64,000 nucleotides of DNA from an uncultured Eubacteriales bacterium (GCA_964515475.1 CAZEVD010000001.1:90636-154635), one strand, 5' to 3'; shown: positions 2,493 to 41,644, counted from the first letter of the stretch. Numbers and translations: made by a program. The notes: generated by a model not told the origin, from the letters alone.

Positions 2493-3500
2493 ATGGGTGA
2501 AGATGAAGAGAGAATAATTTGTCCTGGACTTGGTACTATGGATGTTGATATAGAAACAAGTTTGAGACCAAAAAATATTACAGATTATGTTGGACAAGAA
2601 AAAGTAAAAGAAAATTTAAAAGTGTTTATCGAAGCTGCTAAAAAGAGAGAGGAACCTTTAGACCATACTTTGTTGTACGGTCCTCCGGGGCTTGGAAAGA
2701 CAACACTTGCAAATATTATTGCAAATGAAATGAATACAAATATTAGAATTACATCGGGACCTGCTATTGAAAAGCCTGGTGATTTGGCTGCGTTATTAAC
2801 TAACCTTTCACCAAACGATGTTTTGTTTATTGATGAAATTCACAGATTAAATAAAAGTGTTGAAGAAATATTATATCCAGCGATGGAAGATTTTGCGCTA
2901 GATATAATCATTGGTAAAGGACCTAGCGCAAGATCTATAAGACTTGATTTACCTAAGTTTACTTTGGTTGGAGCTACAACTAAAGCTGGTAATATTGCAT
3001 CACCGCTTCGTGATAGATTTGGAATTATAAATAGACTTGAACTTTATGATAATGATCAATTAAAGAGCATTGTAAAGCGTTCAGCTGCTATTTTAAAAAT
3101 CGATATTACAGAAAAAGGTGCGGCGGAAATTGCGTCTCGTTCAAGGGGTACACCAAGAATTGCAAATAGACTTTTAAAGAGAGTTAGAGATTATGCTGAA
3201 GTTGTTGCTGATGGAACAATTACAGATGAGATTGCGGACAAGGCTTTAAAATGTTTAGATATAGATGGGCTAGGTTTGGATAATACAGATATAAAAATGT
3301 TAGATGCAATTATTAATAAATTTGCTGGTGGTCCAGTTGGTGTAGAAACATTAGCTGCAACAATTGGTGAAGATGCAAATACTATCGAAGATGTTTACGA
3401 ACCATATTTAATGCAAATAGGTTTTGTAAATAGAACGCCTCGTGGTAGAACAGCAACTAAAGCTGCATATGAACATTTAGGAATAGAGTTTGAAAGTTAG
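2493..3500 (+). CDS. ruvB: Holliday junction branch migration ATPase RuvB
   Basis: Walker [12 protein letters not shown], Walker [11 protein letters not shown] and a winged-helix C-terminus. No ruvA lies upstream. Confidence 0.95.
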
Positions 3501-16370: not shown

Positions 16371-18515
16371 ATGATTACTATTGAAGAGAGATTGGTAAAA
16401 GAATTTAAGTTAAAACCATTTCAAGTTGAAAATGCAATCAAATTAATTGATGAAGGCAACACAATTCCTTTCATAGCAAGATATAGAAAAGAAGCAACAG
16501 GAGAAATGTCTGACGAACAATTACGTGATTTGTTTGAAAGACTTACTTATTTAAGAAACTTAGATAAAAGAAAAGAAGAAGTAATCCGTTTGATTGATGA
16601 ACAAGGAAAATTAGACGAAGAACTTCAAACTAAAATTATTGCTTCTGAAACAATGACAGAAGTTGAAGATTTGTATAGACCATACAAACAAAAGAAGAGA
16701 ACAAGAGCAACTATAGCAAAAGAAAAGGGATTAGAACCTCTTGCAATTATCTTTTGGGAACAAACTGAAAAAGTTAATGTTGAAGAGGAAGCTAGTAAAT
16801 ATATCGATGAAGAAAAAGGTGTTGCTACTGCAGAAGAAGCAATACAAGGTGCTAAAGATATAGTTGCTGAAATGATCTCAGATGTTGCAGATTATAGAAA
16901 AGAAATTAGAAATATCATTTATAGAAAAGGTATGATTTCGTCTAAAGCTGCAAAAGATGAAAAATCTGTTTATGAAATGTATTATGATTACAGCGAAGCT
17001 GTAAATAAAATTCCTAGTCATAGAATACTAGCTATGAATAGAGGAGAAAAAGAAGAATTCTTAAAAGTTAAAATTGAAGAAACAGATGATGAAATTTTAG
17101 CTTACTTGAATGGTGAAGTAATTATCGAAGATAGTCCATATGTGGAAATTTTAACAGATGTAATTGCCGATTCTTATAAAAGACTTATTAAGCCATCTGT
17201 TGAAAATGAAGTTAGAAATGATTTGACTGGAGTAGCTGAAGAACAAGCTATAAAAGTGTTTGGACAAAATGCGAAAAAGTTATTATTACAACCACCTCTA
17301 AAAGGTTTAACAGTTATGGGGTTTGACCCAGCTTATAGAACTGGTTGTAAAATTGCTGTTATTGATGAAACAGGAAAACTTTTAGATACAACAACTGTTT
17401 ATCCAACAGAGCCACAAAATGATGTTGATGGTGCAAAGAAAAAATTATTAGAATTAATTAATAAGTATACTATCAATATGATTGCGATTGGTAATGGAAC
17501 TGCATCAAGAGAATCTGAAATGTTTGTTTCTGATATGATTAAATTAGTAAAACATGATATTTATTACGCAATGGTAAGTGAGGCTGGTGCTTCTGTTTAT
17601 TCAGCATCAAAACTTGCTACTGAAGAATATCCTGATATTAATGTATCTTTAAGAGGTGCAATTTCTATAGCAAGAAGATTACAAGATCCTCTTGCAGAAC
17701 TTGTTAAGATTGATCCAAAGAGTATTGGTGTTGGTCAATATCAACACGATGTTAACCAAACTAGACTTGATGAAAGTTTAACTGGTGTTGTTGAAGATGC
17801 AGTTAATAGTATTGGTGTTGATTTAAACACGGCTACACCATCACTATTAAAATATGTTTCTGGCATTAACAAAACTTTGGCTAACAATATTGTTAAATAT
17901 AGAGATGAACATGGAAAGATTAAAGATAGAAAAGAACTTTTAAAGGTTTCTAAGTTAGGACCTGTTGCATTTACACAATGTGCTGGTTTCTTGAGAATAT
18001 TAGATGGAAAGAACCCGTTAGATAACACTTCTGTTCATCCAGAAAGTTATGAAGCTGCAGAAAAGATTTTAAATATTGCAGGATATGAAGTAAAAGATAT
18101 TAAAGAAAAATTAGGCGAAGTTAAAGCAAAACTTGCAACACTAGATGTTGAAAAGATTGCTAAGGAATTAGAAATTGGTGTACCTACTGTAAAAGATATT
18201 ATTAAAGAATTACAAAAACCGGGTAGAGATCCAAGAGAAGATATGCCGAAACCAATTTTAAGAAGCGATGTTTTGAAGATGGAAGATTTACAAGAAGGAA
18301 TGATATTAACTGGTACAGTTCGTAATGTTATTGATTTTGGTGCGTTTGTAGATATCGGAGTTAAGAGTGATGGACTTGTTCATATATCTGAACTTAGTGA
18401 GAAATTCGTAAAGAATCCAATGGATGTAGTTGCTGTTGGTGATATCGTAAAAGTTAGAGTAATAAAAGTTGATTTAGAAAAGAAAAAAGTTTCTTTATCA
18501 ATGAAAGGCGTATAG
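16371..18515 (+). CDS. tex: Transcription accessory protein Tex (YqgF-like, HhH and S1 domains) (start chosen at 16371 after RBS AAGGAG; ORF track gives 16347)
   Basis: Conserved Tex architecture with a C-terminal S1 domain. Confidence 0.9.
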   Translation: MITIEERLVKEFKLKPFQVENAIKLIDEGNTIPFIARYRKEATGEMSDEQLRDLFERLTYLRNLDKRKEEVIRLIDEQGKLDEELQTKIIASETMTEVEDLYRPYKQKKRTRATIAKEKGLEPLAIIFWEQTEKVNVEEEASKYIDEEKGVATAEEAIQGAKDIVAEMISDVADYRKEIRNIIYRKGMISSKAAKDEKSVYEMYYDYSEAVNKIPSHRILAMNRGEKEEFLKVKIEETDDEILAYLNGEVIIEDSPYVEILTDVIADSYKRLIKPSVENEVRNDLTGVAEEQAIKVFGQNAKKLLLQPPLKGLTVMGFDPAYRTGCKIAVIDETGKLLDTTTVYPTEPQNDVDGAKKKLLELINKYTINMIAIGNGTASRESEMFVSDMIKLVKHDIYYAMVSEAGASVYSASKLATEEYPDINVSLRGAISIARRLQDPLAELVKIDPKSIGVGQYQHDVNQTRLDESLTGVVEDAVNSIGVDLNTATPSLLKYVSGINKTLANNIVKYRDEHGKIKDRKELLKVSKLGPVAFTQCAGFLRILDGKNPLDNTSVHPESYEAAEKILNIAGYEVKDIKEKLGEVKAKLATLDVEKIAKELEIGVPTVKDIIKELQKPGRDPREDMPKPILRSDVLKMEDLQEGMILTGTVRNVIDFGAFVDIGVKSDGLVHISELSEKFVKNPMDVVAVGDIVKVRVIKVDLEKKKVSLSMKGV

Positions 18516-18541
18516 TATAAAATTTAGAAGAGGTGTAAGAA

Positions 18542-19150
18542 ATGTTACAAATAAAAAATCCAAAGTTTGAAATATCTGTAATGAATAAATCACAATATCC
18601 TAAAAATAGAATGCCACAAATAGTGTTGGCAGGAAAATCAAATGTAGGAAAATCTTCATTTGTTAATTGTTTGATTAATAGAAAGTCTTTGGCTAGAACA
18701 AGTAGTGAACCTGGAAAAACAAGACAAATAAATTTCTATAACATGGATGATATATTCTATTTTGTAGATTTGCCTGGATACGGTTATTCAAAAATGTCTA
18801 AAGCGGAGCAACAAAAACTTGGACCTGCAATAGAATCATTTTTGAAGAATTCAAAAAATATAAACTTAATAATTTTATTAATAGATATCAGACACAAACC
18901 TTCTGAAAACGATAAGATGATGATGGAATTTATTAAAAATACGGGTAACAGATATATCGTAGTTACATCTAAAGCTGATAAGATTGCTAAAACAAAAGTT
19001 CAATCTTACGTAGATGATATTGCTAAAGAATTAGATGTTGCGGATGATTTGATATTTGCTTTCTCTTCTGAAACAAAATTTAATAAAGAACTTATTTCTG
19101 ATGTAATTGCTGAGTCTTTGTTAACAGCAAAGACTTGGGATGAAGAATAG
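18542..19150 (+). CDS. engB: Ribosome biogenesis GTP-binding protein EngB/YsxC
   Basis: G1 GKSNVGKSS, G3 DLPGYG and G4 TKADK motifs. Confidence 0.9.
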   Translation: MLQIKNPKFEISVMNKSQYPKNRMPQIVLAGKSNVGKSSFVNCLINRKSLARTSSEPGKTRQINFYNMDDIFYFVDLPGYGYSKMSKAEQQKLGPAIESFLKNSKNINLIILLIDIRHKPSENDKMMMEFIKNTGNRYIVVTSKADKIAKTKVQSYVDDIAKELDVADDLIFAFSSETKFNKELISDVIAESLLTAKTWDEE

Positions 19151-19246
19151 GTCCAAACGGGGACGTCCTCAATTGGACACCAAATAATGCTTAAATTATT
19201 TATTACTTTAGGCAAGGTGTCCAATTGAGGACGTCCCCGTTTGGAC
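19151..19246. repeat. GC-rich perfect palindrome A with 31-bp arms
   Basis: GTCCAAACGGGGACGTCCTCAATTGGACACC (19151-19181) is exactly complementary to 19216-19246. It begins at the first base after the engB stop codon. Confidence 0.9.
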
Positions 19247-19257
19247 ATTTGGACAAA

Positions 19258-19295
19258 ATAAAACCACGGCACGCAAGGGGCGTGCCGTGGTTTTC
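19258..19295. terminator. Bidirectional terminator between engB (+) and the FtsH-like gene (-)
   Basis: AAAACCACGGCACGC-AAGGGG-CGTGCCGTGGTTTT perfect stem, flanked by A and T runs. Confidence 0.8.
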
Positions 19296-19308: not shown

Positions 19309-20700
19309 TTATCCTTCAGCAGAGATAAGAATCTGTTTGATTTCATCGCCCATAAGGACTTCGTGCTCCATAAGAGCTTTTGCGAGAGCTTCGAGAGCTT
19401 TGCGGTGTGTCTTGACGATTTCGAAGGTCTCTTCTTCAACCTTCTTAAGATACTCCTGTGCAACCAATTCTGTTTTAGTAAAAAGATTGTTGGAATAGAA
19501 TCCGTAATCTTCGTCAATAGAGATAGGACCGATATCCTTATCCATACCGAAGTTTTGGAACATGGCAAGTGCCATCAAAGATGCGGATTGGAGATCTACA
19601 ACTACGCCAGTAGTATTTTCACCGTAAATAAGATCTTCGGCTGCTTTACCACCAAGAGAATAGATGATTTGTTTTCTACAGTCGCTTTTGAACATGGAGA
19701 ACTTTTCTTCACCGGCTTCTTCCTGAGTAAGACCAAGAGATGCAGCACGAGGAGTAATCTCAACTCGACCCAGAATATAATCGGGGTTAGAGTAATATGC
19801 TGCGATAACGTGGCCAGCTTCATGATAAGCAGTGGAAAGACGCTCTTTTTCGGTCATCTGGTTATAGGTCTGACCAGCTTCCAAAGCGAGCATGACTTCG
19901 TTAAAGTCTTTAGAAGTGACAACTTCCTGATCCTTACGAGCTGCGTAGAGAATCGTTTCGCGAACGATGAATTCGATGTCCTTGGGATACATACCAAGGG
20001 TGTTTCTTGCCAATCTTTCTGCCGAGACATCAGGGCTCAGCTCAGGTTTGTATTTTCCGAAGTATTCTTCGAAGAGTGCGGTACGCGTTTTGAGCGTAGG
20101 CGGCATAATCTGGATAACTTTATTCTTAGAGAATACGTTCGGAGAAAAATATGCGTTGGGCAGAGCAATCTGCTGCTCGATTGTGGACAAAACGACAATT
20201 GCGTTAGATGCGTTTGCAATCTTTTGTGTCAACTGATTGTGGAACAACATAAGCGATTCGGGTTTGAGAGCGTTGATAGCGCTGTAGTTCTGAATGTGAA
20301 TGACGCATCCTTTCGTGAAGCTCTTCGCAACATCGAAGATAGTGTCGACCAGTTTTTTCGCGCGGCGCGGGAAAGAAACGAAAGAAGACATATCTACAGT
20401 GATAAGCGGAATGCGAGCTTCTTTAGCTAAAGAAGAAACAAGGAGCGTTTTGCCAGAACCTGGAGCGCCTGCAAGCAGGAAACGCGAGTGCGGTGCGTGA
20501 ACGGGATCTTCACTATAGTGCTTGAGATTTCTGATGTATCTCAAAGCGTCGGTGAATTCCTCGCGTTCATTTTCCATACCAACGAGCTGCGACATTTTCT
20601 TCTCAATTTCTTTGGGCAAAGAGATATGAATGTAGTGCTTCTCGAGGTAGGAAATCTTCGTGTTGATTTTGACGTTCTGAACGTTTGACAAGAGCCTCAT
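19309..20700 (-). CDS. Soluble FtsH-like protein: AAA domain with degenerate Walker B plus M41 zinc-metalloprotease domain (HEAGH), with no transmembrane segment
   Basis: Walker A GAPGSGKT. The Walker B position reads GCVIHIQNYS, with no D-E. HEAGH is present, and FtsH-like GGKAAEDLIYG lies downstream. RBS AAAGGAGG 8 nt before the ATG at 20700. GC is about 47% against about 29% for the neighbourhood. Confidence 0.7.
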   Translation of the reverse strand: MRLLSNVQNVKINTKISYLEKHYIHISLPKEIEKKMSQLVGMENEREEFTDALRYIRNLKHYSEDPVHAPHSRFLLAGAPGSGKTLLVSSLAKEARIPLITVDMSSFVSFPRRAKKLVDTIFDVAKSFTKGCVIHIQNYSAINALKPESLMLFHNQLTQKIANASNAIVVLSTIEQQIALPNAYFSPNVFSKNKVIQIMPPTLKTRTALFEEYFGKYKPELSPDVSAERLARNTLGMYPKDIEFIVRETILYAARKDQEVVTSKDFNEVMLALEAGQTYNQMTEKERLSTAYHEAGHVIAAYYSNPDYILGRVEITPRAASLGLTQEEAGEEKFSMFKSDCRKQIIYSLGGKAAEDLIYGENTTGVVVDLQSASLMALAMFQNFGMDKDIGPISIDEDYGFYSNNLFTKTELVAQEYLKKVEEETFEIVKTHRKALEALAKALMEHEVLMGDEIKQILISAEG

Positions 20701-21112
20701 AAACGGAATACCTCCTTTATGTTCGAAATATTTATGTGCCTTTTGAACTCCCTTATTATATATGCCTGAATACATAAAAGTCAATGTCAAAAACAGTCAA
20801 AAAGAGGAGAAAAAACTATTTTTTTAACGAATAAAATTTACATAATTTTTATAGCTAAAATTGAAGGAAAAATATGGTTAAAAGCTTAGGGAAATACAAA
20901 GTTTACAGATTTTGAATACAAAACAACTTAACATAAGAATGAGAAGAGGGTTGAAAAAATCAAAAATTTTCTTTTTTACGGAAATAGCACATTTAAAGCA
21001 AATGGCGGTTTGACGGGTTGTTTGGTGTTGACTCGTATGCTAAAATTAATTTATACAAAGTAAAAATGTATAATTTATGTATACAAATTATTTTTGAAAG
21101 GAGTGATTTCAG

Positions 21113-32278: not shown

Positions 32279-33265
32279 ATGAAAGAAAAAATATCAATTG
32301 TTGTGCCGATGTATAATGAAGAAGAGGTTGCAAATGAATTCTATACTAGAACGACAGCTGTGTTGAAAGAACTTCCTTATAATTATGAATTGATTATAGT
32401 AAATGATGGCAGTAGAGATAAAACTTTAGAAATAGTTCTTGGTTTTGTTGATAAAGATGAACATGTAAAAGTTATCAATTTTTCAAGAAATTTTGGACAT
32501 CAAGCTGCAATTACTGCTGGAATAGAAAATGCAGAAGGAGATGCGATAATAACGATTGATGCAGATTTACAAGATCCACCAGAAGTAATGATTGATATGA
32601 TTGCTGAATGGCAAAAAGGTTTTGATATTGTTTATGCAAAAAGAAAGAGTAGAAAAACAGATACATTTTTTAAAAGATTTACGGCAAATATGTATTACAA
32701 AATTTTAAATAAACTATCTGATGTAAAAACTCCTGAAAATGTAGGAGACTTTAGATTAATAAGTAAAAGAGTTCAAGAAGTATTTAAAAAATTACCGGAA
32801 AAAGATAGATATATTAGAGGGATGTTTGCTTGGATGGGATTTAAACAAAGCATCGTAGAATTTGATAGGCAATCAAGATTTGCTGGTGAAACTAAATATC
32901 CGCTTAAGAAAATGTTGAAACTTGCATTTAGTGGAATTATAGGTTTTTCAACAAAGCCGTTACAATTAATCATAAAGCTAGGTTTATTAACAACATTCAT
33001 ATCTTTTATTTTGTTAATATATGCAATTGTAGTAAAGATAATGGGATATACGACAAGTGGTTGGGCATCACTTATGGTTGCAATAACATTTATCGGTGGA
33101 ATTCAATTATTATCTTTAGGAATTGTTGCTGAATATATAGGTAAAATTTATGGAGAGGTAAAAGACAGACCTGTATATATAATAATGGACAAGTATTCAA
33201 GAGAGAATACCAAACATACTCCTAAGATGATTGAAAAATTAAAAAATCTATGGGGACAGTCCTAA
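32279..33265 (+). CDS. GT2 polyisoprenyl-phosphate glycosyltransferase (GtrB/ArnC-like)
   Basis: VVPMYNEE...IIVNDGSRD...DADLQD (DXD motif) and two C-terminal TM helices. Confidence 0.85.
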   Translation: MKEKISIVVPMYNEEEVANEFYTRTTAVLKELPYNYELIIVNDGSRDKTLEIVLGFVDKDEHVKVINFSRNFGHQAAITAGIENAEGDAIITIDADLQDPPEVMIDMIAEWQKGFDIVYAKRKSRKTDTFFKRFTANMYYKILNKLSDVKTPENVGDFRLISKRVQEVFKKLPEKDRYIRGMFAWMGFKQSIVEFDRQSRFAGETKYPLKKMLKLAFSGIIGFSTKPLQLIIKLGLLTTFISFILLIYAIVVKIMGYTTSGWASLMVAITFIGGIQLLSLGIVAEYIGKIYGEVKDRPVYIIMDKYSRENTKHTPKMIEKLKNLWGQS

Positions 33266-33331
33266 AAAGGACACCCTCAAATTTGTTTTTTGAACAACAA
33301 ATTTGAGGGTGTCCTTTTTAGGATTGTCCCC
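33252..33331. repeat. GC-rich palindrome C with 36-bp arms and one mismatch
   Basis: GGGGACAGTCCTAAAAAGGACACCCTCAAATTTGTT (33252-33287) pairs with 33296-33331. It overlaps the gtrB-like stop codon. Confidence 0.85.
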
Positions 33332-33488
33332 GTAGAGAAATCTTAATTTACATACAACATTCACATAAGAAAAATTATCCGTAAACAGAGCAAACATAAT
33401 AAATTGCAAAACTCGCAAATGCTTGCAAATACTAAAAGAGAACATAAAACATTACTTAAAATTTATCTGAAAATTTTGTCTGTTTTTC

Positions 33489-37494: not shown

Positions 37495-37640
37495 ATGAAA
37501 AGTCGTGCAAAGCACGACTTTTTTATTTGTGGAATCAGAGGTGAGATTCGAAAAAGAGCGTGAGTCAGACAAGCTAAAAGCGAAGACTAACGAACAAGAA
37601 ATAGTCCAGTGGACTATTTCGTAGCGATGCGGGTCGTAAG

Positions 37641-37657
37641 TCCACCTCTGCCCACCA
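37641..37657 (+). repeat. 17-bp direct duplicate of the tRNA-Tyr 3' end (TCCACCTCTGCCCACCA)
   Basis: Identical to 37478-37494. It is preceded by a degenerate T-arm-like GGGTCGTAAG, in place of GGTTCGAATCC. Confidence 0.8.
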
Positions 37658-40447: not shown

Positions 40448-41644
40448 CTACACATTTGGTAATCGGTGAAATGCCGTTTCAGAAATATTTAAATCCACCT
40501 TAGAGATTATTTCAATTTTTGAATTTTTAAATATTTCTTTCCACTTGATTTTTTCAAATTCATCCCAAGTAAGATAATTAACTTTTGCATATTTACCTAA
40601 AGCTACAATATCTGAATTTATTTCTTTTAGTGTATCTAAATAATCAGTAAGTTGATTAGTAAGCTTTGATTCAAGAGAATCTTTTAGTTTATCTCTATTT
40701 TCTTTATCAACGTAATCTGTTGTTCCTTCAGAAGATAATATATGCGCATTTATATATGTTGTAATTTTTATATTTGGTATGTTATCTTGAATATTGATTT
40801 CGTAACTACATTTGCGTGATGGAGTTAAAGTAAAAGTTACAATTTCTGCTGGCTCATTTATATCAGGTATTCCGACAGTTCCACGTTCTAATGTGTTGGT
40901 TAATATTAGGTGAGATAAAGCTTTTTCAATTGGAATTGTCGATGTCATTTTTCCACCATCAAAGGTTGCAATTCCTGAAATTTGAATTTCATTTTTTTCG
41001 TTTGAAGAATTATTTTTTTCAGTTTCTTTTTGGTCGCTATCTGTTTTTTCTTTAGAACTTTTTAATACAATTGCATATGCATCTCTGTCAATACTTTGAG
41101 CAGATTTATAAAAGTCAAATAATTCTGATGAAACAAATAAATTTGTATAATTATTTGATGCAAAAAATAATTCATAGAATCTTGCTGTGCTAGATTCTAA
41201 TACAGGAGAAACATTTGAAAGAAAATCTTTTGTTTTTCCTTCACAGATTGCAATAGTGGTTTTAGGCCTAATATCAACATTTGCCATCAACTCACTTATG
41301 TGTCCACTTAAATCTTCTTTAGCTAATTCTTCAGAATATATAATTAATTTTACATTCGCTAAGTTTATTTCTTTACTTGTTTGCGTATTAACGATAGAGT
41401 TAGCCAAATAAAGCGATGGAGCAGAAACTGTATACGTGGTGTAGTTTTCTTTTCCGGTGCTACTTTCTGTTCCAGATAATTTTAGGGGAATTGCAATTTG
41501 ATATGTTATATCTAAGTTTTTTTCTTCGCCTTTGTCTATTCCGATTGCAATGACATACGCTAAATCATCTAATTCTTTTCTGTCATAGCATCCAGTTAAT
41601 AGCAGAGGTATTAACAATATAAATAATAATTTAAAAAGTTTCAT
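40448..41644 (-). CDS. gerAC: Spore germination lipoprotein, Ger(x)C family
   Basis: Lipobox LLLTGC, then YDRKELDDLAYVIAIGID, the GerAC-family signature. Confidence 0.8.
   Translation of the reverse strand: MKLFKLLFILLIPLLLTGCYDRKELDDLAYVIAIGIDKGEEKNLDITYQIAIPLKLSGTESSTGKENYTTYTVSAPSLYLANSIVNTQTSKEINLANVKLIIYSEELAKEDLSGHISELMANVDIRPKTTIAICEGKTKDFLSNVSPVLESSTARFYELFFASNNYTNLFVSSELFDFYKSAQSIDRDAYAIVLKSSKEKTDSDQKETEKNNSSNEKNEIQISGIATFDGGKMTSTIPIEKALSHLILTNTLERGTVGIPDINEPAEIVTFTLTPSRKCSYEINIQDNIPNIKITTYINAHILSSEGTTDYVDKENRDKLKDSLESKLTNQLTDYLDTLKEINSDIVALGKYAKVNYLTWDEFEKIKWKEIFKNSKIEIISKVDLNISETAFHRLPNV

Follow-up and report, generated by a model that had tools for sequence, protein, structure and literature searches.

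The 64,000-nucleotide stretch of DNA analysed here (the window) has 30% GC, a strong positive GC skew and tightly packed genes, with intergenic gaps of mostly 10-30 nt, and it carries three inverted repeats, A, B and C, beside housekeeping genes. The question raised by this arrangement is whether the repeats are hairpins that arose separately at each gene end or copies of an element that has moved about the genome. The sequence-only reading of the window had leaned to the second answer, taking them for GC-rich perfect palindromes of REP/BIME or MITE type.

Anatomy of the three inverted repeats

Element A starts at 19151, directly after the TAG stop codon of engB (18542-19150). It consists of a left arm on the plus strand (19151-19181), an AT-rich spacer of 34 nt with 18% GC (19182-19215) and a right arm on the minus strand (19216-19246), and the arms are complementary at 31 of 31 positions. 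The left arm is a single REP-like unit, GTCCAA-acGGGGACGTCCtcaa-TTGGAC, able to fold alone as a mini-hairpin, and the right arm is the same unit on the minus strand. Each arm can thus be written as a small hairpin, GTCCAA-ac-GGGG-ACGT-CCTC-aa-TTGGAC, and a fold of -13 kcal/mol is predicted for the unit (GTCCAA-ac-GGGGACGTCCTC-aa-TTGGAC). On the other side of A a gene for a soluble FtsH-like AAA+M41 protein is encoded on the minus strand (19309-20790), and the right arm lies directly 3' of the T-run of this gene's terminator. A separate canonical bidirectional intrinsic terminator had been noticed next to A; it is present at 19260-19294, between engB and the FtsH-like gene, is conserved in the related locus L006, and, though adjacent to A, does not belong to the repeat family.

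The FtsH-like protein has AAA and M41 peptidase domains and no N-terminal membrane part, and its gene, with 43% GC in a 30% GC genome, keeps its position in all relatives examined. The earlier idea that the palindromes are connected with this gene was not supported, because the gene stays in place with or without an element: it occupies the same position in relatives that have none beside it.

Element B is built on a larger scale. Its left arm (24095-24162, plus strand) contains 2.9 tandem 19-nt sub-units (TGACGGAACGGGGACGCCT, 24095-24150) and, further in, an A-like unit (24134-24164), its centre is 12 nt long (24163-24174), and its right arm (24175-24242, minus strand) mirrors the left one, with the 19-nt sub-units at 24187-24242. 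The arms, 68 nt each, are complementary at 67 of 68 positions (99%). Both ends of B are stop codons: pyrG ends at 24097, its TGA being the first three bases of the element, and the TGA of the convergent NFACT/FbpA gene (24240-25931, minus strand) forms the last three. The listed pyrG ORF (22409-24097) has 562 aa and a TTG start, about 31-33 aa more than its orthologues (529-531 aa); since the ORF is overlong and the Pfam match begins at residue 35, the true start is probably downstream.

Element C has two 44-nt arms, 33247-33290 on the plus and 33293-33336 on the minus strand, which are separated by 2 nt and complementary at 41 of 44 positions (93%). The left arm starts with TCTATGGGGACAGTCCTAAAAAGGACACCCTCAAATTTG and reaches into the upstream family-2 glycosyltransferase (GT2) gene (32279-33265), whose last six codons and TAA stop codon (33263-33265) it contains; nrdD lies downstream. 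The core of C (33264-33319), as read from the sequence and folded, is an A5 tract, a GGACACCCTCAAATTTG stem-loop and a T5 tract, which is the canonical anatomy of a bidirectional intrinsic terminator, and the outer GGGGACAGTCC / GGATTGTCCCC carries the stem beyond the A and T tracts.

The existence of three such inverted repeats is thus confirmed, and so is the claim that each touches or contains a stop codon (the TAG of engB, the TGAs of pyrG and NFACT, the TAA of the GT2 gene). Their description needed some correction. The boundaries given for A and B hold, but C is wider (33247-33336 instead of 33252-33331); only A is perfect, B and C having mismatches in their arms; and a GC content of about 55% is right for B as a whole (61%) and for the arms of A (58%), but A and C taken whole have 44% and 40%, respectively.

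The three elements are far beyond chance expectation, as judged from the count of CGGGGAYR, which occurs nine times in the window against 0.69 expected, with nine of nine occurrences inside A, B or C, and from the predicted RNA hairpins, which have energies of -69, -158 and -71 kcal/mol for A, B and C, respectively, and z-scores of -15 to -27. Between the arm of A and the inner arm of B, 26 of 31 positions agree, the best of 20 shuffles reaching 19 of 31. The long core motif reported for all three elements is common to A and B but not to C, which is related to A through the collinear alignment GGGGAC(A)GTCCT.AA..GGACACC. A second register, that of the earlier proposal, also fits (GGACGTCCTCAA in A, GGACACCCTCAA in C), because the arms are built of repeated GGAC/GTCC words.

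The mismatches in the arms of B (one), C (two) and the L006 homologue of C (three) are all G.U on the sense and A.C on the antisense strand. This pattern is compatible with selection on the transcript, but the strand asymmetry is also compatible with the strand mutation bias implied by the GC skew, which is a confounder here.

Two other features of the window may be recorded. Two ORFs, one for region 2 (26102-26506) and one for region 4 (26487-26798), make up a split gene of the sigma-70 family and overlap by 20 nt in different frames; the gene is also split in L006, L031 and L033, is a single 231-aa ORF in L008 and L030, and in L011 is broken by an island with a large serine recombinase, resembling the skin element. 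The split could be due to a frameshift or to a developmental rearrangement. Downstream of tRNA-Tyr there is a tRNA-like sequence of about 130 nt (37527-37657) with the same final 18 nt as tRNA-Tyr (GTCCACCTCTGCCCACCA) and a 5' GGTGG able to base-pair with its 3' end. The sequence is also conserved at L008:1340-1500, and neither ARAGORN nor Rfam called it.

Copies and orthologous sites in related genomes

Homologues of NFACT and HtpG led to syntenic loci of relatives, and the sequence compared amounts to about 240 kb from seven related assemblies. NFACT identity to the window is 88% for L006/L035, 81% for L011, about 80% for L008/L034 and L030, and 71% for L031. Loci L001, L002 and L037 come from the MAG GCA_964394075.1 (uncultured Eubacteriales bacterium), and the htpG loci are 20 kb long. 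Units were located by a descriptor scan, which in its permissive form yields many hits by chance (about 12 of 30). In the window itself, an nhmmer profile of the arm found no more copies in the other 60 kb.

The unit is an imperfect GC-rich hairpin of about 28-34 nt. Solo copies and arms alike read G(G)TCC(C)A, then 1-4 nt, then GGGGAC(G)(T/G)(C/A)C as the conserved sequence of the loop, then 3-7 nt and T(G)GGAC, and nine units from six assemblies have stems of 6-12 bp. Beyond GTCC/GGAC the stem extensions vary yet stay complementary (C/G, CG/CG, AAT/ATT, TTT/AAA, GTGTCTCAGTTG/CAACTGAGACAC), and a MAFFT alignment of the units anchors on GGGGAC and staggers the stems. About 20 elements were found in the approximately 240 kb of clade sequence from the seven assemblies, that is, about one per 10-20 kb. 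They occur as solo units, as inverted doublets around an AT-rich spacer, like A, and as mosaics with tandem sub-units, like B. The doublets, apart from A, are L001/L037:9771-9873 and the imperfect L037:6969-7045; solo units include L035:7139-7170, L035:2233-2260, the C-like L035:19548-19595 and, in the distant L031, one directly after a sigma-factor gene. Most of the solo units and doublets begin 0-3 nt from a terminator T-run or a stop codon.

The MAG offers the clearest pair of unlinked copies, one after engB (L002) and one upstream of htpG between divergent genes (L001/L037). Their arms are alike at about 30 of 31 bases, and their spacers are unrelated. Nor is the spacer of A conserved in the paralogous L001/L037 copy. 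The copy between divergent promoters means that 3' ends are no absolute rule, and the claim that the palindromes sit exactly at gene 3' ends cannot stand as a general one, the more so as one array lies upstream of engB. This array (L011:15747-15823, in the tex-engB gap) consists of six 12-nt GGGAC-box units (TTCTCAGGGACG / TCAGGGACACTT) in tandem, ends in a small CAGGGA...TCCCTG hairpin, and is a one-sided relative of the GGGAC boxes in B; in B, in L001 and in the array one box follows the next at intervals of 12-19 nt.

A related subtype of 60 nt, AAAACGGGGACGCCCCTTATT...AATAAGGGGCGTCCCCGTTTT, is built like a bidirectional terminator. Its two copies in L034 (9834-9906 and 19738-19806) have the same arm asymmetry and mismatches, and the copy upstream of htpG is nearly identical over its whole length to the palindrome between pyrG and NFACT in L030; the subtype was therefore copied as a whole. 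The 22-nt core common to A and B was found in one genome among GTDB species representatives (GCA_964394075.1), at two loci, which points to a low copy number per subtype. On this evidence A, B and C are members of a dispersed family of hairpin repeats, and not isolated hairpins.

Several orthologous sites are occupied differently in close relatives. The site upstream of htpG is empty in L035, has a 60-nt copy in L034 and a 135-nt doublet in the MAG, and the convergent junction by the NMT1 gene has no element in L034, a solo unit in L035 and a doublet in L037 (MAG). At the engB site there is a doublet in the window and in L002, a solo unit in L006 and L008, and none in L030, L011 and L031; a 73-nt indel sets L008 apart from its close relative L030. 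The solo units of L006 and L008, which stand in opposite orientations, are accompanied by engB's own canonical terminator. The copies in one genome tend to share a subtype, even where the orthologous copy of another genome differs, and this points to turnover or homogenisation inside genomes rather than to simple vertical descent, as far as the compared loci go.

The right arm of A is orthologous to the solo unit of L006 (19 of 23 positions identical), and the left arm stands where L006 has the canonical terminator of engB. Such a pattern would be the expected product of a local inverted copy made by template switching, or of a REPIN-type doublet. The region 16500-19250 of the window (tex, engB and A) is 96-100% identical to L002, with flanks of 85-89% identity on the left and 60-80% on the right. 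This tract (about 16500 to 19250) has the look of a segment exchanged not long ago, and its right border coincides with the right edge of A. Since A lies inside it, the agreement of A in the window with A in the MAG does not count as independent evidence of conservation.

The history of the B site can be followed through three lengths, 64 nt in L030, 95 nt in L006 and 148 nt in the window. In L030 it is AAAA-(T/C)GGGGACGCCCCTTATT-loop-AATAAGGGGCGTCCCC-(G/A)TTTT, a textbook bidirectional terminator with A4, a GC stem of 16 bp and T4; L006 has a palindrome with a diverged arm, CAAAGGGGACAGCCTTATTTGTACAC; and B in the window has triplicated sub-units and no T-tract. In each lineage both arms were altered in parallel. 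The stop codon of NFACT is a TAA outside the palindrome in L006 and L030 and a TGA inside it in the window. Judging from this series, B descends from a canonical bidirectional terminator with a GGGGAC stem, which is still intact in L030. At the C site L006 has an AT-rich palindrome, apparently decayed, and its glycosyltransferase ends in ...KKIFK, whereas that of the window ends in ...KNLWGQS: the outer GGGGACAGTCC arms of C run past the terminator core and replace the last codons of the gene. Comparison of the orthologous loci showed, in terms of sequence, changes in place that include tandem duplication, outward growth into stop codons, and replacement or loss of canonical terminators.

A probable REP-like family and the alternatives

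We think, with a probability of roughly 0.6, that A, B and C belong to a lineage-specific REP/REPIN/BIME-like family which occupies the terminator niche in uncultured spore-forming Clostridia of about 30% GC. The host is taken to be a spore-forming member of the Clostridia because it has a germination operon (GerA family). The gene for the spore-germination permease (GerAB-like) in this gerA operon is in two fragments, 41641-42135 and 42311-42739, which are 175 nt apart, and is probably disrupted.

The family is likened to REP/REPIN by its apparent mode of working and is not put forward as a proven RAYT system. The best reading of the comparisons is that it has colonised, and in places replaced, the ordinary terminators of a compact AT-rich genome and has taken over stop codons. 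The elements may have spread by a single-strand hairpin mechanism that leaves no target duplication, driven either by a RAYT/IS200-like HUH enzyme or by replication template switching together with gene conversion between hairpins, and template switching would keep the arms symmetric. In transcripts the doublets would form very stable 3' hairpins that may terminate the mRNAs of engB, pyrG/NFACT and the GT2 gene or shield them, and for this reason the host might tolerate them or use them instead of ordinary terminators. The position of the elements, the ancestry of B and the core of C support a role as very stable 3' hairpins that would replace terminators or guard mRNA 3' ends. A function of this kind had been suggested before; it is consistent with the anatomy of the C core and of the L030 orthologue of B, but A (TTT followed by GG) and B (no T-run), unlike the C core, have no U-tract, and therefore terminator activity is not assured for these two.

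The rival that survives best, though we consider it unlikely, is that the elements are ordinary intrinsic terminators which arose independently at each locus and never spread between loci. Their stems would be alike because few stable ones are available in an AT-rich genome, and the long symmetric arms would have been made locally by template switching. The textbook terminator at the B site of L030, the A5/T5 core of C and the clear growth of B in place fit this explanation well, as do further long palindromic terminators in the window, e.g. at 53099-53153 and 30972-31001. Hairpins of the type AAAACGGGGAC...GTCCCCGTTTT in unrelated, GC-richer organisms, found in a metagenome scan whose pattern forced part of the match, also suggest that such stems recur. 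It is difficult, however, to reconcile independent origin with arms at unlinked loci that match at 26-30 of 31 positions, when shuffled sequences gave 19 of 31 at most, or with a match of whole elements, spacer and mismatches included, that joins two different loci. Neither would local need account for the copy between divergent promoters, where no terminator is required and where the site is empty in a relative, nor for solo units directly downstream of terminators that are already complete. The absence of U-tracts from A and B points the same way.

It is likewise unlikely that the family is a self-spreading system of mobile terminators without a dedicated transposase. GGGGAC units would then copy themselves from terminator to terminator by template switching or hairpin-primed gene conversion, would home to the T-run at transcript ends, and would afterwards enlarge to giant palindromes, rewriting stop codons and the C-termini of genes. 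In a wider form of this reading, the AAAACGGGGAC...GTCCCCGTTTT palindromes of unrelated GC-richer environmental bacteria could be the same cross-phylum class. The metagenome scan with AACGGGGACGYC-N40-70-GRCGTCCCCGTT gave 13 loci with about seven distinct palindromes on unrelated contigs of 39-64% GC; these were mostly terminator-like hairpins, one was a tandem repeat, and they are probably pattern-forced and coincidental. Environmental contigs of 54-64% GC with palindromes ending in AAAACGGGGAC...GTCCCCGTTTT were seen at L017:1871-1958 and 3328-3407, L019, L021 and L029, the search pattern having forced part of the match. In L017 two such palindromes lie within 6.8 kb, each exactly between two genes, and L017, L020 and L021 have extra bases that match the window elements beyond the forced motif.

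We regard it as improbable that the elements are a functional RNA or protein-binding motif selected separately at each site, for instance a hairpin in the 3' UTR to which an RNase or an RNA-binding protein attaches, or arrays of GGGAC boxes for a DNA-binding protein. A conserved GGGGAC(G)... loop on variable stems would be expected of such a motif, and so might the spacing of 12-19 nt seen for the GGGAC boxes of B, of L001 and of the L011 array, the G.U bias on the sense strand, and the fact that three of three solo units of unambiguous orientation point the same way as the upstream gene. Most solo units, however, lie past a terminator T-run and for that reason would rarely be transcribed; units are gained and lost between close relatives beside housekeeping genes of no common function; and the boxes in doublets are buried in long perfect duplex. 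Searches of Rfam 15 at the gathering score matched no RNA family other than tRNAs, and the A-B region gave only noise at E<=10.

Classical MITEs, i.e. deletion derivatives of a DDE-transposase insertion sequence moved in trans via terminal inverted repeats, are the least probable of these origins, since, although the elements are small, palindromic, non-coding, dispersed and polymorphic for presence, no consistent direct repeat flanks A, B, L001, the L034 copies or the L008/L030 indel, the likeness spans the whole arm or unit and not the termini only, the spacers of the A type are unrelated, solo units are common, and no DDE transposase was found in any fetched locus. The proposal of REP/BIME-type or MITE-like mobile palindromes is thus upheld for the REP/BIME kind, by unlinked copies, by solo arms and by sites that are empty, solo or doublet, but not for MITEs, given the lack of target-site duplications.

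Other identities were considered and rejected. The AAC...GTT ends and the position at gene 3' ends were the reason for considering integron attC sites, but the elements have no R-box consensus, and the genes on either side of them are core housekeeping genes whose synteny is conserved. When viral contigs were scanned with three motifs, the matches were isolated chance hits in GC-rich coding DNA with no palindromic partner, and a phage origin was rejected. The elements are too sparse for DNA uptake sequences, parS-type or other chromosome-organising sites or CsrA-type GGA sponges; their sites turn over between relatives, and their boxes are buried in the duplex.

Relation to known repeats and significance

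It is instructive to compare the present elements with the REP and REPIN families, which have tens to hundreds of copies per genome, a conserved 5' GTAG/GTGG tetranucleotide adjoining the hairpin, and a cognate single-copy RAYT (Y1 HUH transposase) gene that is usually flanked by repeats. Unlike these, the family described here occurs in uncultured low-GC Clostridia and has no 5' GTAG: no GTAG was found beside the units, whose conserved parts are GTCC/GGAC and GGGGAC. Its copy number per subtype looks low, the exact core being present twice in one GTDB genome as against hundreds of copies in classical REPIN populations, and its elements overlap stop codons and recode gene 3' ends. A RAYT, also, was not identified: neither the scanned ORFs of the window nor the Pfam annotations of the genes called in the fetched loci gave a Y1_Tnp/RAYT match, and the same ORFs and loci contained no transposase, apart from the unrelated serine recombinase island in L011.

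There are also similarities. REPINs are inverted REP doublets with non-conserved spacers, and some are flanked by A and T runs (PMC3337134). Like the REP, BIME and REPIN sequences of Enterobacteria and Pseudomonas, the elements are built from a short, GC-rich, imperfectly palindromic unit that occurs in singlets, inverted doublets and mosaics; they have free spacers, no target duplication, several subtypes per genome, and presence/absence differences between relatives; and they are extragenic, lie mostly at 3' ends or convergent junctions and in some copies are flanked by A/T runs and terminator-like (PMC3337134).

With intrinsic (Rho-independent) terminators the elements share the position right after stop codons, the GC-rich stem and, in the C core and the 60-nt subtype, the flanking A/T tracts; they differ in the missing U-tract of A and B, in stems of 31-68 bp that are far longer than needed, and in the recurrence of the same sequence at unlinked loci and in a divergent promoter region.

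The Correia elements of Neisseria, the pneumococcal BOX and RUP elements and the Rickettsia palindromic elements are small palindromic repeats that insert at or into gene ends. Correia and RUP elements, which are linked to insertion sequences of the DDE type, bear terminal inverted repeats and come with target duplications; the Rickettsia elements insert in frame within genes. Like all of these, the present elements are non-coding, form hairpins, are dispersed, vary between close relatives and may supply terminators or change coding 3' ends, but the GGGGAC unit is not known from any of them. The GC clusters of yeast mitochondria (PMC4478555) are likewise short, GC-rich, palindromic, strain-polymorphic mobile elements in an extremely AT-rich genome, but they belong to a eukaryotic organelle, have other sequences and no relation to terminators.

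Template switching can create, homogenise and expand hairpin arms (PMC8794818; PMC13100816). The perfect arms with sharp borders, the parallel change of both arms between species and, at the B site, the outward expansion resemble template-switch hairpins, as does the inverted copy that replaces neighbouring sequence at A, although local action alone does not explain near-identical units at unlinked loci.

The elements also have practical consequences. Logan contigs of the window's strain, identified by exact-protein look-ups (SRR14307642/58/63; L003, L004, L005 and L033), break off after about 30 nt of A and 27 nt of B. This is expected of repeats or perfect palindromes in k-mer assembly, and the elements therefore fragment short-read and k-mer assemblies. 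These breaks, together with the recombination boundary at A, mean that the elements matter for MAG assembly and for the annotation of gene ends in these organisms.

To our knowledge, repeats of the REP/REPIN type have been studied almost entirely in Proteobacteria, and a comparable family in uncultured low-GC gut Clostridia would widen their known range. The orthologous sites, moreover, provide a natural series of the interaction between a repeat and gene ends, which leads from a canonical terminator to a near-perfect palindrome of 148 bp and includes the change of a stop codon from TAA to TGA as the palindrome engulfs the stop codons, a new C-terminus of a glycosyltransferase, and the replacement of a gene's own terminator by an inverted copy of the repeat.
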